Source of the DNA: Christensenella sp. UBA4651 | GTDB taxonomy: Bacteria > Bacillota > Clostridia > Christensenellales > UBA1242 | Assembly (NCBI GenBank): GCA_002405615.1 | Contig: DHMD01000072.1 | Location: 1 to 42,899, forward strand | Reading direction: 5' to 3' | Length of the DNA: 42,899 bases | Shown: positions 9,829 to 42,899 of the stretch, one piece after another | Position numbering within the stretch: position 1 is the first letter of the stretch | Layout of the letters: every line of letters starts with the position of its first letter | Position numbers and translations under genes: made by a program | The notes under the pieces: model-generated | Seen by the model: only the letters and a program-made list of their open reading frames with translations | The model's database searches: none | Told to the model about the DNA's origin: nothing

Positions 9829-10875
9829 TCATTCATTTCTCAATTTTACTTTACTCGCTGCAGCTCTGCGCACGTCCTCCGTCATAGCGGCATAGTGCTT
9901 CTTGGTAGTATTTATATCCTTGTGTCCCAGCACGTCTGCCACAACATAAATATCTTTTGTTTCCCTATACAAATTCGTGCCATAGGTACTCCTCAACTTG
10001 TGCGGACTAATGTTTTTGAGTGGTGTAACGAGGCTACTGTATTTTTTTACGAGGTTTTGTACGGCTCTTGTTGAAATACGCTTCTTTTGCAGCGACAGGA
10101 ACAATGCCCGCTCACTCTCAGGCAATCCCTTGATAGAGCTTCTACTTTCGAGATACGCCTTCAATGCTTTTGCCACTTCATCAGAGAAATATAACACTAC
10201 CTGAGCACCGCCCTTGCGTATTACCTTGAATCCGTTTATAGAGAAATCAATGTCATCAACATCTAGCCCAACACACTCGCTCACGCGTATGCCTGTTCCC
10301 AAGAGTAGGGTAACTATGGCATAATCTCTCGCTTCTGTATGCTTGTGGAATGCCTGTTGAGTAGGGGATAGGGCATAACCAGTTTCCGCCATATCGAGGA
10401 GATTTACCATCTCATCGACCTCCAAACGAACGATATTTTTCTCATGCAATTTAGGCAAATCTACCTTATCGGTAACGTTTTTGTCCAGTTTTTCTTTCTT
10501 AAAAAAGTAGCTAAAAAACGAGCGCAAGGTAGACAATTTGCGTGATTTCGCCTGCTCATTGTTATGATATGTCTTCCCATTAAACTCATAAACAGTGAGA
10601 AATTCCATAAAATTCTCTATCTCAGTAGCCGTGAGCGTGTTTAGGTCCATCAGCGAAATCTGTTTTGGTGCACGACCGTAAAATTGCGGGGCGTGGGTAG
10701 CCAAATAATAGAAAAAAATTCTCAAATCATAAGCATAATTAAGTCGGGTGAGGGGAGTAGTCGTATTCTCGACACCCACAAAAAATTCACTGCAAAAATA
10801 CGGCAATTCCGCTCTTAATTCTCGTAAACGCTCCATATTTTTATCATTGCGTTGAACATAATACTTTTCAGACAT
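9829..10875 (-). CDS. Tyrosine site-specific recombinase, XerS-like architecture
   Basis: 348 aa. The C-terminal catalytic domain has GIRVSE, HKLRST, LGHKDINTTKKHY (R...HxxR...Y), and an N-terminal SAM-like core-binding domain is present. Start at ATG 10875 (AAGAGG SD); the longer ORF start at 10914 falls inside the promoter spacer. No phage or ICE genes flank it. Confidence 0.85.
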   Translation of the reverse strand: MSEKYYVQRNDKNMERLRELRAELPYFCSEFFVGVENTTTPLTRLNYAYDLRIFFYYLATHAPQFYGRAPKQISLMDLNTLTATEIENFMEFLTVYEFNGKTYHNNEQAKSRKLSTLRSFFSYFFKKEKLDKNVTDKVDLPKLHEKNIVRLEVDEMVNLLDMAETGYALSPTQQAFHKHTEARDYAIVTLLLGTGIRVSECVGLDVDDIDFSINGFKVIRKGGAQVVLYFSDEVAKALKAYLESRSSIKGLPESERALFLSLQKKRISTRAVQNLVKKYSSLVTPLKNISPHKLRSTYGTNLYRETKDIYVVADVLGHKDINTTKKHYAAMTEDVRRAAASKVKLRNE

Positions 10876-10894
10876 ATTCAAAACCTCTTGCAGT

Positions 10895-10923
10895 ATTATA
10901 TCAAATATTCTCAAATTTGTAAA
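10895..10923 (-). promoter_or_regulatory. Sigma-70-type promoter of the recombinase gene
   Basis: On the - strand: TTTACA (10918-10923), 17 nt, TATAAT (10895-10900). Confidence 0.55.
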
Positions 10924-10933
10924 ATATATTTGC

Positions 10934-10956
10934 GAACATTTTAGTATTAAATGTTC
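10934..10956. promoter_or_regulatory. Inverted repeat GAACATTT-N7-AAATGTTC (candidate recombinase core site or operator)
   Basis: Perfect 8-bp arms (10934-10941 and 10949-10956) around the 7-bp centre TAGTATT, 11 nt beyond the -35 of the recombinase promoter. A third direct copy, TTAGAACATTTT, lies at 10968-10979. Confidence 0.4.
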
Positions 10957-11323
10957 TATGTCTAAAATTAGAACATTTTTTCTTTTTGTTTGTTACTAAA
11001 ATGAAGTGCATAGTACTGCTAATCACTAAATATAGAATATTTCAATAGCAACATTTTGCAAAGTCGTTTGAGCGAGAGCTTTTGACATTTTATTAGTACG
11101 ACTATTTCATATAAATTAGATGAATAGTTACTCATCAAAAAATATAAACTCTGTGTCAGCGCGTTTTACAACGAGTTTATACAGAGTAAAACGTTTTATA
11201 TAAATCTATAATCAAAAAACAAAATTCAATATATAATGGATTAAATTTAATTTATTATATAAAGAAAATTTATTAAAAAATTGTAAAAACACCAAAATTC
11301 GTTTTATTTCCTGCTTTACTACA

Positions 11324-11361
11324 CTAACTATGCGTAAAACTTGTCTTTTACGCATAGTTAG
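11324..11361. repeat. Perfect 16-bp inverted repeat (stem-loop) in the ORF-free spacer
   Basis: CTAACTATGCGTAAAA (11324-11339), loop cttgtc, TTTTACGCATAGTTAG (11346-11361). No U-tract follows on either strand. Confidence 0.7.
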
Positions 11362-11492
11362 AACATTGTTAACAAATTATTCCCTACTATCCACATCAAA
11401 TTATATTTGCTCTTTATCAAACGATTTTATAATGCGATTACACAGAGCTTGTTAAAAATATCTTGTTGATTTATGGGAATTTTATACAAAAA

Positions 11493-14427: not shown

Positions 14428-14502
14428 AGGGGAGTGGCTCAACGGTAGAGTAGTGGTCTCCAAAACCATTGGTTCAGAGTTCGAATCTCTGCTCCCCTGC
14501 CA
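14428..14502 (+). tRNA. trnW: tRNA-Trp (anticodon CCA), CCA-encoded
   Basis: 75-nt cloverleaf folded by hand: acceptor AGGGGAG/CTCCCCT, D arm GCTC/GAGT, anticodon stem GTGGT/ACCAT with loop CTCCAAA, T arm CAGAG-TTCGAAT-CTCTG, discriminator G, then CCA. Confidence 0.93.
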
Positions 14503-26748: not shown

Positions 26749-26774
26749 TTTTTACCTCAAAATATTTTGTAAAC

Positions 26775-26797
26775 AAAAAAGCGGCAACGATGCCACT
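26775..26797 (-). terminator. Intrinsic terminator of rpsO
   Basis: On the - strand: AGUGGCA-ucgu-UGCCGCU (one G-U pair) followed by UUUUUUG. Confidence 0.7.
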
Positions 26798-26803
26798 TCT
26801 TTA

Positions 26804-27058
26804 TTAACGCAAGCCAAGTTCGGCATTGAGTTTCCTGTAACTTTCTAGGTCAGTACGCTCCAAGTACTTTCTCAAACCTTGACGCTTACCTACCAACTTC
26901 AACAAACCACGACGAGTGTGGTTGTCCTTTGGGTGAGCCTGCAAGTGAGCAGTCAAATGGTTAATTCTCTCTGTAAGGAGAGCGATTTGAACCTCTGTAG
27001 AACCAGTATCCTTCTCATTCTGACCGTACTTAGCGATGATTTCTTGTTTAGTCATCAT
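26804..27058 (-). CDS. rpsO: 30S ribosomal protein S15
   Basis: 84 aa. [55 protein letters not shown]. Confidence 0.96.
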
Positions 27059-27144
27059 AATTTATGTTCCTCCGTAAATAAATTCGCCTAAAACAACGCA
27101 AGACGCGGAGTAAATCCGTCAAGCCTAGTAATAGGTATGCTTGC

Positions 27145-27173
27145 ATTATAGCATAAAGCCCGCCGTTTGTAAA
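27145..27173 (-). promoter_or_regulatory. rpsO promoter (followed by a ~85-nt leader)
   Basis: On the - strand: TTTACA (27168-27173), 17 nt, TATAAT (27145-27150). Confidence 0.6.
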
Positions 27174-27177
27174 GACT

Positions 27178-39093: not shown

Positions 39094-40839
39094 ATGAAAA
39101 AAATACTAGCACTTTCGCTAACTTTGGCTATGGCATCGACATTTGCAATCTGTGGAACTGCAAACAGCGATGACCAGAGCGCTTTACGCCAAGAATTGGA
39201 CAATTTGCATTTGAACGCAAACAGTTTGGATGTGGAATATTGTAGTAGCAGTCTGCTATTTGATAATGGTATGACCTTGAATAAAGTTGATAACGACTAC
39301 TCAATCACTCCAATTAGCGAAACCCGAGGAGAAAAAAGCGTTGCTGATAACAACACAAAATCGGCAATGTCAAATGACAATAATATAAATGGAACAGTCG
39401 GTGGCAACCAAAGCACAATTTCAAATGGAAATGGCAACGCTGTAGGCACTACCAACACAAACAATGGCATAAATGACATTGCGGCAAACAACCAAGGCTC
39501 AAGTCCGTATGGGATTGGTCAAGCAAATAGCGGTGTTTTGCCAAATAGCGCCAACAGGGCGCAAGCAAATGCAAACGTTGACTCATACAATAGAACCAAT
39601 TTGGACTCAATGATTAGAACAAATAACATTGACACTTACAGAAACAATACCAACCCTAATATTGACGGCAAAATTTACAACAATAATGGCGCAGTTGTCG
39701 GCAACGATATGAATGGGAATGGAATTAACAGTGTAAACGGAGTTAATTCTGGTAGAAATGTGATTAATAGCGCAAACACAAACACCTTACCAAACGGTAC
39801 ACCAGCGCAAAACACCACAACAACTACACCAAACAGAACTGGTTTAGCACCAAATACAAACAATGCTCCTCGCCCTACCACTATGAACACAACAAATAAT
39901 TCCACTCGCCCAAGCAACATTACGCAAAATGCAAACAATACAACAAATCAAATTAAGAATAATTCAACAAACAACCAGACAAACACAAAGCCAAACAAAA
40001 TTTGGGGTCATCGTGTAAACACATTTGATAACAGAAATGGTACAAACAATGTGGACTACACCGATGTGCAGAATAGAATTGATGAGTTAAACACCAGATT
40101 GTCTTCACTCAACACCACAATGGACGAGAGTTTGACCACTGCCAGAAAAAACATTCAACGAGTAATTGACAAAGAGATTACACTCAACGACACTCAAGCC
40201 GCCCAAATCAATTCATATTCTCGTCTTTTGAGAAAAATCACTCACAAATTAACCGAAAATGAATTTGAGTTGATGCAAAGTGCTGGCGAAATCGCTTTGG
40301 CTCAGAGCAACCAAAGCAAAGCCACCGATTTGAGTGCTGTTTACCTAGATATGCAGTACACCCTCACTTGCCGTGAACATTGTATCAACTGCGCAAATGA
40401 CGCACTAAATGCAATTAATGAAATTTTTGGTTCATTTGATAACGACAACGACACAAATACTCCTAGCACAAAGCCTGTGGTAACTGACAACACGGTAAAT
40501 AACGGGAATACAAACAATAATACAAATGTTGCCGACAATACAAACAGTGGCACAAACACAAATTCAAATAATGTAAACGGGCAAACTAACACCGGCCCAG
40601 TTACACCTAGCACTCCTACAAAGGACTCAACTCCTAGTGCTTCTGCAAACACTAATGACTCAATACCTACCAAACTAGATACTGCACAAAATTTGAACAC
40701 TTCTACATTAGACTCTACAAAAAATGATGCTGCAAAAACTACCACACCAACAAAAACTGACTCAAAGTATGTAGCAAATCAAAACAGTATCCCTAATGTT
40801 ACCAAAGATTTTCAAAACAAAAACAATGAGGTATTTTAA
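39094..40839 (+). CDS. Secreted (possibly lipo-) protein, Asn/Thr-rich low complexity around a helical core; unknown function
   Basis: Signal peptide MKKILALSLTLAMASTFAICG. About 116 of 581 residues are Asn by hand count. The central ~130 aa (DYTDVQNRIDELN...NDALNAINEIF) are non-repetitive and helical-looking. ATG 39094 lies 8 nt after AGAGG. Confidence 0.75.
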   Translation: MKKILALSLTLAMASTFAICGTANSDDQSALRQELDNLHLNANSLDVEYCSSSLLFDNGMTLNKVDNDYSITPISETRGEKSVADNNTKSAMSNDNNINGTVGGNQSTISNGNGNAVGTTNTNNGINDIAANNQGSSPYGIGQANSGVLPNSANRAQANANVDSYNRTNLDSMIRTNNIDTYRNNTNPNIDGKIYNNNGAVVGNDMNGNGINSVNGVNSGRNVINSANTNTLPNGTPAQNTTTTTPNRTGLAPNTNNAPRPTTMNTTNNSTRPSNITQNANNTTNQIKNNSTNNQTNTKPNKIWGHRVNTFDNRNGTNNVDYTDVQNRIDELNTRLSSLNTTMDESLTTARKNIQRVIDKEITLNDTQAAQINSYSRLLRKITHKLTENEFELMQSAGEIALAQSNQSKATDLSAVYLDMQYTLTCREHCINCANDALNAINEIFGSFDNDNDTNTPSTKPVVTDNTVNNGNTNNNTNVADNTNSGTNTNSNNVNGQTNTGPVTPSTPTKDSTPSASANTNDSIPTKLDTAQNLNTSTLDSTKNDAAKTTTPTKTDSKYVANQNSIPNVTKDFQNKNNEVF

Positions 40840-40878
40840 TTAAATTAGAGTATAAAAACAAAAATAGAATATAAGAAC

Positions 40879-40906
40879 AAAAAGCCCCAAAGCGGGCTTT
40901 TTGTTT
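40879..40906. terminator. Bidirectional intrinsic terminator
   Basis: AAAAAGCCC-caaagc-GGGCTTTTTGTTTT. Confidence 0.8.
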
Positions 40907-40925
40907 TATCCTAATTATTTATTTT

Positions 40926-41160
40926 GGTTCGGCTGACGCCTCACGAATTCCTCGACAAGCCACACAAGGGAGGAGACGCTTTGCATATCCGCACTGTGTG
41001 GTGCGTATGCGGCGTAGCCCGCATACGGAATGGCTACTGCATACACGCTAGTGTATAACGCCGATAGGTGTTGTGGTGGCAAAAGCCAACACACGCAGTA
41101 GCCGAGCAAGAGCCAGAGGTGCTCTCACATATCTTCGTAGCCTCATAGCGTAGCCGAACC
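40926..41160. ncRNA. Candidate structured RNA (unassigned family) or MITE-like palindromic element
   Basis: GC-rich island in AT-rich spacer DNA. 13-bp closing helix (40926-40939 with 41148-41160, one bulged G). 9-bp helices 41004-41012/41019-41027 and 41032-41040/41095-41103. 6-bp hairpin 41041-41046/41051-41056 with a GCUA loop. 5-bp hairpin 41104-41108/41120-41124. GTAGCC occurs 4 times, plus one inverted copy. Strand undetermined. Confidence 0.45.
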
Positions 41161-41175
41161 CAATAGTAAAAGTTT

Positions 41176-42899
41176 TTAACTATTGTCTACATCGTCATTG
41201 ATGTTGGACTTGTCAATTTTCTCGAAGCGAGCGGTGATGAGTTTATCCTTTACATCAGAATAAGCGAATGCGCAAGTATCCTCGATGTATTTTGTAGAAA
41301 TCACGCCGTCAATCGCCCAACCAACGAACTTGTAGCCTGCACTTGGAGTAACTGTAACGACAACATAGGTTACATCGTCCTTTACGATTGTACTCATCGC
41401 AACATCGCCGCAAGCGGTAATGCTCGCATCATCGGTGCAGATAGAGTCCACAGCCACGCCGTTGATTTTTACACCAGACTCGATAAACACTGCGGTGTAA
41501 GTACAGTCGTTGGTAACTGTTACTGTGATTTGGTTTGTGTTATTGTTGGCAAAAACCTTGCCGTCCTTTAGCCAGTATGCTAGTTGATAGCCTTTTTTGG
41601 CATATGCTTTGAGAGTGGCTGAACCGTTGAGAGCGTAACTACCGCCGCCCGAAAGCACACCGACTGCACCCGAGATATTTGCGTTTACAGTAATAGAACA
41701 AGATGATGAATCTATGATTGAACTAGCGAACAGTTCGGTATTCACTACAATCTCGCCTAATTCCGCCACACTACTTGCAGTAACGGTACTGCTAGCGAAC
41801 ACTGCGGTAATGACTTTGTTACGAACCTCAGAGAGCGGAATTAGAGCGTCCGCAGTGGTATATGTGGTAGACAAAGTGTCCCCAATTTTCCACCCAGTGA
41901 ACTTGTAGCCGCTGCTTGGGCTAGCACTCACTGCTACATATTGTGTGCCGTTCTTGACTACATTCTTGGACGAAACCATACCATAAACCGTACCCGAACC
42001 ACACTCCATACGGATAGCGGAATTGTTAATTTTGACTCCCGCTTCGGCGAAAACCGCCGTATATGTGCTGTCCGAGGTTGCCGAAATTGTTACTACATTG
42101 GTGTCGTTACCCGAGAATGTTGCCCCGTCCTTGAGCCAGTGCAAAAATTCATAGCCTTTCATCGCATAAGCGGTTAGAGTTACAGACTTGTTTGCGTCAT
42201 AAGTGCCGCCACCAGTCAGCACGCCCGCTGCGCCATTGATGTTTGACTTCACTTGGATAACATAGACTTTTTGCCATACTGCGTAAAGCGTGATTGAGCC
42301 TGATGTTGCCAAGTTTTTGACACTCGCTTTGTCGGTGTATGTCGCAGAAGTTGCGGTATTTGAGGTACTCCACCCCAAGAAACGATATCCCGAACGAGTA
42401 AAGCCGTTCGCCGTAAGGTTTTTAGAGGCATCGTATGTGTGCGAACTGCTGGCAGTCGTTCCCGCACCGCCGTTTGCATTGTAGTTTATGGTATAAGTGT
42501 TGGCAGTCCATTTAGCATACAGCGTTACGGTCGCCCCTTGCGTGCTGCTGAGGTTAGACACGCTCTGACCATTTGAGTAAACCACTGCCCCACTAGCGCT
42601 CGTTGCCCAACCAGCAAAATCGTACCCAGTGCGAGTAAATGCATTTGCCGTCAACGCCTTGCTTGAGCCGTAAGTGTGCGAACTATTGCTCATCGTACCG
42701 CTACCGCCATTAGCGTTATATTTTACGCTATAAGTGTTTGCTGTCCACTTTGCGTATAGAGTTGTTGCACCTGTCAAGTCGCAAGCCTTTGCACTCGCTC
42801 CGCTGGCGGTATAGTATTGAGTACCGCCGCCATTAGTTCCAGAGTAATATCCGCCGAAAGTGTAGCCAGTTTTTGTAGGAACTGTGATACTTGGCATTG
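41176..42899 (-). CDS. Surface/secreted protein with Listeria-Bacteroides (Flg_new) repeats and divergent InlB B-repeat-like domains; 5' end outside the window
   Basis: Three TGYxFxGW...LYAKWTANTY repeats, then two copies of a ~155-aa two-domain module. No C-terminal LPXTG or TM segment. The ORF is open to the window edge. Confidence 0.85.
   Translation of the reverse strand, partial: MPSITVPTKTGYTFGGYYSGTNGGGTQYYTASGASAKACDLTGATTLYAKWTANTYSVKYNANGGSGTMSNSSHTYGSSKALTANAFTRTGYDFAGWATSASGAVVYSNGQSVSNLSSTQGATVTLYAKWTANTYTINYNANGGAGTTASSSHTYDASKNLTANGFTRSGYRFLGWSTSNTATSATYTDKASVKNLATSGSITLYAVWQKVYVIQVKSNINGAAGVLTGGGTYDANKSVTLTAYAMKGYEFLHWLKDGATFSGNDTNVVTISATSDSTYTAVFAEAGVKINNSAIRMECGSGTVYGMVSSKNVVKNGTQYVAVSASPSSGYKFTGWKIGDTLSTTYTTADALIPLSEVRNKVITAVFASSTVTASSVAELGEIVVNTELFASSIIDSSSCSITVNANISGAVGVLSGGGSYALNGSATLKAYAKKGYQLAYWLKDGKVFANNNTNQITVTVTNDCTYTAVFIESGVKINGVAVDSICTDDASITACGDVAMSTIVKDDVTYVVVTVTPSAGYKFVGWAIDGVISTKYIEDTCAFAYSDVKDKLITARFEKIDKSNINDDVDNS
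41227..42261 (-). repeat. Tandem duplication of a ~155-aa two-domain module within the surface protein gene
   Basis: Module A (41797-42261: VIQVKSNINGAAGVLTGGGTYDANKSVTLTAYAMKGYEFLHWLKDG...KVITAVF). Module B (41227-41697: SITVNANISGAVGVLSGGGSYALNGSATLKAYAKKGYQLAYWLKDG...KLITARF). Confidence 0.8.

Follow-up and report, generated by a model that had tools for sequence, protein, structure and literature searches.

REP elements are palindromes headed by the motif GTAG. In enterobacteria and pseudomonads, REP/BIME sequences (and the REPIN doublets) form GC-rich clusters of palindromes in direct and inverted orientation, which lie between convergent genes, downstream of a stop codon and upstream of a terminator. 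They are co-transcribed with the neighbouring gene, and in enterobacterial operons the clusters act as a barrier to 3' exonucleases and raise the half-life of the upstream message. A genome that harbours these elements has tens to hundreds of copies of them, and a RAYT transposase goes with them. The 3' 'positive retroregulator' of the Bacillus thuringiensis crystal-protein (cry) genes stabilizes its message likewise; it is a stable stem-loop in a Firmicute, at the 3' end of a strongly expressed gene for a secreted or surface protein. MITEs, Correia, ERIC, RUP and BOX elements and the Tn3-derived TIMEs are about 100-260 bp long, intergenic, and bounded by terminal inverted repeats. Repeats of the MITE type form one long hairpin, and they can fold as RNA and alter mRNA stability.

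GC-rich spacers have also been used as a guide to structured RNAs. The GC-IGR approach picks such RNAs from AT-rich genomes by their size, GC excess and multi-way junctions (PMC11109978). There, 4714 GC-rich intergenic regions were examined and 1274 analysed in depth; most such candidates finish as 'low-ranking' (607) or 'unnamed' (427), together 1034 of the 4714, for want of representatives (PMC11109978). These two labels describe a holding class rather than a functional family.

The block described here, 235 nt at positions 40926-41160 of the window (the whole stretch of DNA that was analysed, 42,899 nt), sits between two convergent genes on a chromosomal segment from an uncultured, spore-forming member of the gut Clostridia. 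The segment encodes RuvABC, YajC-SecDF, RecJ, MutSL, SpoVAC and a GntR/ABC transporter operon. When SpoVAC is used for comparison, the closest named relatives are MAGs labelled Christensenella or Christensenellaceae, with best amino acid identities of 89-93%. One of the convergent genes encodes a surface protein, the other an Asn-rich protein for which no Pfam family was matched. The features of the locus are collected in Table 1, where the strand of the block is entered as minus since transcription as a 3' UTR would run on that strand; the DNA itself is nearly symmetric.

Table 1. Features of the block and its surroundings (positions in the window; a point marks features given no strand).
Feature	Positions	Strand	Remarks
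GC-rich multi-helix block, 235 nt	40926-41160	-	Evidence: GC, fold z-scores, window rank, identity in same-species contigs
Surface-protein gene, 3' part (InlB B-repeat / Flg_new)	41176-42897	-	Full product 889 aa in L001
Convergent neighbour, 581-aa protein with Asn/Thr-rich tail	39094-40839	+	Stop at 40839
Intrinsic terminator, bidirectional, AACAAAAAGCCC-GCTTTG-GGGCTTTTTGTT	40876-40905	.	12-bp stem; between plus-strand gene and block
Closing helix / terminal inverted repeat, left arm GGTTCGGCT(G)ACGC	40926-40939	.	As DNA, repeat begins at 40923
Closing helix / terminal inverted repeat, right arm GCGTAGCCGAACC	41148-41160	.	As DNA, repeat reaches 41163
Interrupted hairpin CCACACA...TGTGTGG with internal loops	40959-41002	.	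Plus strand carries AAGGGAGGAG, minus strand CUCCUCCCUU
Perfect 9-bp hairpin CGTATGCGG / CCGCATACG, 6-nt loop CGTAGC	41004-41027	.	
Multi-way junction domain, closed by 9-bp GGCTACTGC / GCAGTAGCC	41032-41103	.	
Hairpin, 8 bp including 2 G-U	41106-41128	- only	Minus-strand fold

The original prediction singled out this block as richer in GC than every other intergenic region of the window, and the composition bears this out. The block has 55.7% GC, compared to 38.7% for the whole window and 20-31% for its true intergenic spacers, and it is the GC-richest 235-nt stretch in all 42.9 kb. A seeming exception, the spacer at 26749-27177 (0.41 GC), holds rpsO (84 aa, 26804-27058, minus strand), which falls below the ORF size cut-off and hence looked like spacer; the flanks of rpsO in that spacer gave no Rfam match.

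The fold of the block is stronger than chance by a wide margin. Against 200 dinucleotide shuffles, the plus-strand RNA (MFE -101.6 kcal/mol) has a z-score of -4.83 and the minus-strand RNA (MFE -106.7 kcal/mol) one of -5.64; for the fold as single-stranded DNA, z is -5.50. Among 570 overlapping 235-nt sliding windows the block ranks first, with by far the lowest energy. It is a genuine structured element, compact to an unusual degree and robust in statistical terms. Short repeats are enriched in it as well, with 20 pairs of direct 6-mers versus 7.4 ± 3.5 and 23 pairs of inverted 6-mers versus 8.9 ± 3.6, so that the block is built of a small vocabulary (GTAGCC, GCATAC, CACAC) beyond what its helices need. 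The number of predicted pairs is 84 (7 G-U) on the minus strand and 76 (4 G-U) on the plus strand, and 61 of these are plain Watson-Crick pairs common to both. Because so many pairs are shared between the strands and the single-stranded DNA fold is equally significant, the structure may be a palindrome cluster at the DNA level rather than one selected as RNA. The predicted fold mildly favours the minus strand.

The individual helices proposed earlier are present in the sequence. The ends of the block pair over 13 bp with one bulge, as had been described, and as DNA the terminal repeat extends to 16/17 (TTTGGTTCGGCT / AGCCGAACCCAA); in the folds the extended closing helix forms on the minus strand only. 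The perfect 9-bp hairpin with its CGTAGC loop was found in the predicted place, and ATACAC-GCTA-GTGTAT and GAGCA...TGCTC both occur. On the plus strand, only the 5-bp GAGCA/TGCTC helix is possible at 41106-41128, and the plus-strand MFE structure leaves it unused. The 9-bp helix that closes the junction domain is as proposed, but it encloses three hairpins (41041-41056, 41057-41072 and 41073-41092), where two had been counted. An alternative pairing of CCGCAC (40989-40994) with GTGCGTATGCGG (41001-41012) had also been suggested; both segments lie at those positions, but they match over only 5 of 6 bp. The predicted recurrence of GTAGCC is exact, with four copies (41014, 41098, 41137 and 41150) and one inverted copy, GGCTAC, at 41032.

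On the minus strand the order of elements is the surface-protein stop codon (41176-41178), 15 nt, the block, 20 nt and the terminator. From the stop codon through the block, no other terminator-like or promoter-like site was found on this strand, either inside the block or adjoining it. The terminator ends both convergent transcription units and is the only one downstream of the block on the minus strand. Its hairpin had been recognized in the original prediction, where it was set at 40879-40906; the coordinates in Table 1 replace these. On the plus strand, the block comes after the terminator that ends the upstream gene, and it lacks one of its own. Given the convergent genes, the stop codon 15 nt away and the sole terminator beyond the block, a minus-strand 3' UTR is the most likely reading, and the earlier suggestion of a structured 3' UTR for the surface-protein gene thus fits the anatomy of the locus. 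If the surface gene is expressed, the block would make up the main body of its 3' UTR. That no gene lies downstream on either strand, also noted before, follows from the convergent arrangement and argues against a leader of the riboswitch type. In the predicted fold of the whole 3' UTR, the block forms one closed multi-way junction, followed by the terminator hairpin. The minus strand carries GGCUAC four times, as well as CUCCUCCCUU, which is complementary to the Shine-Dalgarno sequence; this C-rich stretch is partly unpaired in the predicted ensemble.

Two other repeats are found in the flanks. An 18-19-nt A-rich unit, AGAnTATAAnAACAAAAA, occurs in three direct copies at 40806-40883 (TRF period 19, 2.2 copies), between the stop codon of the Asn-rich gene and the terminator, whose stem overlaps with the last copy. 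On the other side, an AT-rich inverted repeat at 41161-41185 (CAATAGTAAAA / TTTAACTATTG) spans the surface-protein stop codon and abuts the block; its arms do not pair with each other in the MFE structure of the full 3' UTR.

The explanation that we prefer, tentatively and with somewhat less than even confidence, is that the block is a lineage-specific palindromic insertion that is co-transcribed as a 3' UTR and serves as an exonuclease barrier. A 235-bp GC-rich palindromic insertion, bounded by terminal inverted repeats of 13-16 bp and containing five hairpins, adjacent or nested, made from a few recurring motifs, would have come with, or after, the GC-richer accessory surface-protein gene. 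The GC content is 0.56 in the block, 0.45-0.52 in the adjoining surface gene and 0.39 in the rest of the window. Read on the minus strand, the block would then belong to the tail of the surface-protein mRNA, since the stretch from the stop codon (41176) to the block is free of terminators and promoter-like sites and the sole terminator lies just past the block. The tail is predicted to fold as a closed multi-way junction of about -107 kcal/mol. Its effect would be passive and in cis, with a compact structure before the terminator blocking 3'-to-5' exonucleases, and the upstream message would have a longer half-life as a result.

Of the known systems, the REP/BIME clusters are close to the block in architecture, position and motif, which are the grounds on which the likeness is judged. 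Both are GC-rich clusters of palindromes in direct and inverted orientation, both follow a stop codon between convergent genes and precede a terminator, and both have a short recurring motif with GTAG (GTAGCC in the block). Co-transcription and stabilization of the upstream mRNA are known for REP/BIME sequences and are proposed for the block. In contrast to REPs, only one copy of the block and no RAYT gene were seen in about 52 kb, and the REP/BIME hosts belong to a different phylum from the host of the block. The block resembles the MITE-type repeats in its size, terminal inverted repeats, intergenic site and capacity to fold as RNA. Unlike them, it shows no target-site duplication, further copies were not found, and the search of 185,579 species genomes gave no parent insertion sequence that shares its ends; its interior is a set of branched local hairpins rather than one long hairpin. 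For the cry retroregulator, the 3' location, the kind of gene and the Firmicute host are comparable, and the barrier mode proposed for the block is the same; however, the retroregulator is in essence the terminator hairpin, whereas the block is a separate 235-nt multi-junction domain before an ordinary terminator.

The block is found in a single species only, among the collections and loci searched. All 12 same-species contigs that reach it, from independent samples in ENA, JGI, NCBI and Logan, carry it at the same place. Eleven of these were compared by sequence and have zero substitutions in the block; in the twelfth (L094) the same 336-nt gene spacing is seen, and presence was judged from gene layout, not alignment. 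Nine of the contigs read through the whole block (L094 among them by gene spacing). A contig reached via the SpoVAC 90% cluster (L101) is identical, and another (L105) stops short of the site. This identity is uninformative on conservation, as there are only 4 SNPs in the surrounding 4.5 kb.

In the two closest species (L011 and L012) the block is absent at the syntenic site. Their homologue of the Asn-rich gene is kept next to spoVAC, and beyond it are a plain terminator and different genes. Both the block and the surface-protein gene are thus missing there, which fits joint acquisition. Where the surface protein has its nearest homologues (L092, 64-69% identical; L093; L095), and likewise the Asn-rich protein (L095, L096), an ordinary terminator and no such block comes after the gene. 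Since the closest homologous genes (L092, L095) end in this way, the surface-protein family does not need the block, and, given the plain terminators in L092, L093 and L095, a 3'-UTR motif of that family was rejected. Two of these contigs have features of their own. The L011 contig (CAVEBU010000024.1) is labelled Alistipes finegoldii yet carries the spoVAC of this Clostridia lineage (93% SpoVAC identity) and the Asn-rich gene; it is probably mis-binned. In L093 (215-22201), a block of about 9.9 kb with Flg_new and polysaccharide-deacetylase genes is tandemly duplicated, the gene pattern recurring at an offset of about 9929 nt.

Searches for further copies covered a range of scales. No second copy, even a partial one, was found in about 52 kb of the same genome, and blastn and nhmmer gave no match in 80 related loci fetched through SpoVAC (1.2 Mb, 80 related species). 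A covariance model made from this one sequence with its MFE structure recovered only the block itself in 1.25 Mb of relatives and surface-gene homologue loci, even with filters off on the most relevant loci. Large sequence collections were scanned by exact strings or by the terminal-repeat pattern (both repeats with a 195-225-nt gap). The pattern had 0 matches in 185,579 species genomes, one genome each, and 0 in IMG/VR; an exact 36-mer string found only itself in metagenome contigs; three scans of viral contigs (by pattern and by exact strings from 25-36-mers) had 0 matches; and phage and plasmid BLAST in distant mode found nothing. Clusters of GTAGCC/GGCTAC were specific to this locus in 1.42 Mb scanned, the other two clusters found being unrelated. 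With all copies identical and from one species, there are no base changes on which to count covariation.

The block is not a known RNA family and is not demonstrably mobile. In Rfam 15, no family reached its gathering score in the block; the families covered include SRP RNA, tmRNA, RNase P, 6S RNA, riboswitches, ribozymes, group II intron domains and HEARO, OLE, GOLLD and ROOL. At E<=10 all matches but one fell on the neighbouring terminator (40830-40972), and the sole match in the block, mir-3347, is at noise level (14.7 bits compared to a gathering score of 124, E 3.8). ARAGORN found no tRNA or tmRNA in the block; its only gene in the window is tRNA-Trp at 14428-14502. The original prediction had seen no signature of SRP RNA, tmRNA, RNase P, the glmS ribozyme, T-box or cobalamin elements, and the negative Rfam and ARAGORN results for the block agree with it. 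The two identities that it offered fared less well. As a functional RNA, the block shows 100% identity within one species and absence from the syntenic site in sister species, so conservation does not speak for it. As a MITE-like element, it does have the terminal inverted repeats; no further copies were found in the approximately 52 kb of the same genome, in about 1.25 Mb from relatives and surface-gene homologue loci, or by pattern in the 185,579 genomes. On these results neither reading can be promoted; matching no known RNA family and found in one species only, the block stays an unconfirmed candidate.

Several other classes were compared. No target-site duplication is seen: the flanks (...TTATTTAT / TAGTAAAAG...) contain no in-register direct repeat of 2-9 bp. 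The high intergenic copy number of REP/BIME sequences is not matched, the other spacers of the window having 20-31% GC and no such block. An inverton would be expected in two orientations, but the nine read-through assemblies show one, and the nearest recombinase gene is about 30 kb away. A DGR template repeat was rejected, as the block resembles neither the surface gene nor any other part of the window, and none of the neighbouring genes encodes a reverse transcriptase. The hairpin CGUAUGCGG...CCGCAUACGG recalls the consensus of group II intron domain V (D5); it has neither the bulge nor the AGC triad, and the Rfam intron models gave no match at E<=10. The first bases superficially resemble Tn3 or IS6 ends, but the shortness of the repeat and the lack of a target duplication tell against these.

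Assemblies differ in how they treat the middle of the block. Four Logan contigs (k=31), from four samples, all end at 41015/41016 (L003, L004 and L008 start there, and L098 ends there). They enter the block from the side of the Asn-rich gene and break in the loop of the perfect 9-bp hairpin. With longer k, nine contigs made by SPAdes or MEGAHIT pass 41015 (L094 by gene layout). No 16-30-mer repeated in the window was found that would account for the breaks. The contigs may fork toward a second sequence that has the left part of the block in common, i.e., another copy or an alternative haplotype; the break may also come from systematic sequencing error after GCGGCG within the inverted repeat. 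The adjacent surface gene varies as well. Comparison of the window (41176-42897 and beyond) with L001 (5123-7792), L002 (3-3233), L005, L007, L009 and L010 gave protein lengths of 699, 885, 889, at least 966, 1056 and 1076 aa in different strains. The variability is in the 5' part of the gene; the last approximately 1.5 kb (about 98.5% identity) and the block are common to the strains.

Several of the same observations can be read without any role in message stability. The block could be a non-autonomous mobile element, solitary or decayed and similar either to a MITE or to a REP/BIME palindrome cluster, that lies neutrally in an AT-rich spacer with no role as RNA. Such a relic, the main rival to the preferred explanation, is possible, if doubtful. 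It would account for the terminal inverted repeats of 13-16 bp, a fold that is nearly strand-symmetric and as strong for single-stranded DNA, a composition foreign to the intergenic DNA of the host, the empty syntenic site in the sister species, and the four direct and one inverted GTAGCC among 6-mers enriched in both orientations; one reading of the Logan break at 41015, a second sequence sharing at least 30 nt, points the same way. A mobile origin is harder to square with the block being the only copy seen in about 52 kb of the same genome, in the 1.2 Mb from 80 related species and at the surface-gene homologue loci, with 0 matches to the terminal-repeat pattern in 185,579 species genomes and IMG/VR, with the lack of a parent element, and with nothing in the phage and plasmid collections and no target-site duplication at the ends. 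There is also no transposase, integrase or RAYT-like gene among the nearest annotated genes, and a search of 5.8 billion predicted proteins with peptides from the six frames was empty. A new class of structured noncoding RNA with a function of its own, such as a stable RNA processed from the 3' UTR, appears improbable. Its putative modes of action would include protein binding via GGCUACG repeats, or pairing with ribosome-binding sites via CUCCUCCC. The size, GC excess and multi-way junction are those sought in GC-IGR screens (PMC11109978), the block is the strongest folding outlier of the window, the minus strand is favoured, and that strand carries both the four GGCUAC copies and the Shine-Dalgarno complement CUCCUCCCUU. 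However, similar cases in the screen stay 'unnamed' or 'low-ranking' (1034 of 4714 regions; PMC11109978), the C-rich stretch is only partly unpaired, the block has no promoter-like site of its own and is absent from sister species, and with no homologues there is no covariation in its support.

The breaks in the Logan contigs and the variable neighbour could also be taken together as signs of a DNA recombination or inversion site tied to strain variation of the surface gene, which we consider very unlikely. The site would consist of the inverted repeats around about 210 bp, or of the perfect 9-bp inverted repeat with its 6-bp spacer. Inverted repeats do surround a short segment beside a surface-protein gene, that gene differs in its 5' part between strains (699 to at least 1076 aa), and four Logan contigs fork at 41015, within the 6-nt spacer of the perfect hairpin. 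Against this, the nine read-through assemblies have the same orientation and sequence (L094 by gene spacing), the variable part of the gene begins more than 1.5 kb away and not at the block, the sole recombinase gene seen (9829-10914) is about 30 kb off, and the block is at the 3' end of the gene rather than at its promoter. A bolder proposal, which we would give little chance, is that the block is a new, narrowly distributed five-way-junction RNA freed from the 3' end of the surface mRNA, its four GGCUAC repeats binding protein, or else that the central hairpin is the crossover point for cassette exchange between surface alleles; such a crossover would account for all four k=31 assemblies forking at one loop base. 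That the block encodes a small protein is scarcely credible. On the plus strand, AAGGGAGGAG (40967-40976), a strong Shine-Dalgarno-like sequence, is followed at the correct spacing of 5 nt by a TTG (40982) and a 25-codon Cys-containing frame, LHIRTVWCVCGVARIRNGYCIHASV, that ends at 41056-41058; on the minus strand, a 64-codon frame with a TTG start runs from 41109 to 40915. But the six concatenated frames had 0 matches among 5.8 billion predicted proteins, a 64-69-aa frame had 0 among 1.84 billion representatives, no gene was called at the block in any of 12 assemblies, and the plus-strand frame is past a terminator, with no promoter-like site, and buried in stable helices. With zero protein matches in six frames, the block is also not recognizable as a coding remnant or mis-called ORF.

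At present the block belongs with the 'low-ranking' and 'unnamed' GC-rich-spacer candidates of the Breaker laboratory, from which it does not differ in kind; it gives the same signal of a long GC-rich spacer with a complex predicted fold in an AT-rich genome (PMC11109978). A consensus model is out of reach for those candidates and for the block, each having fewer than five distinct representatives; on present evidence the block joins the many other orphan GC-rich intergenic candidates that a lack of relatives leaves unclassifiable. If it is transcribed and stabilizing, as in the preferred explanation, it would be a REP-like 3' stabilizer on a strain-variable surface protein in the Christensenellales, a prominent but barely studied gut lineage. 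If it is an independent RNA or a recombination site, it would represent a new class of element. Its practical value is as a defined target, whose coordinates, strand and predicted fold can serve for mapping metatranscriptomes and for running a covariance-model search across whole databases.

Elsewhere in the window, the second-strongest folding outlier (z about -6.9) is a 578-nt spacer of 24% GC at 10915-11492, between the integrase-like and YgjP-like genes. Within this spacer are two inverted repeats, a perfect one of 16 bp whose arms are 6 bp apart (11324-11361) and one of 45 nt at 71%, and the Logan contig L100 also ends there.
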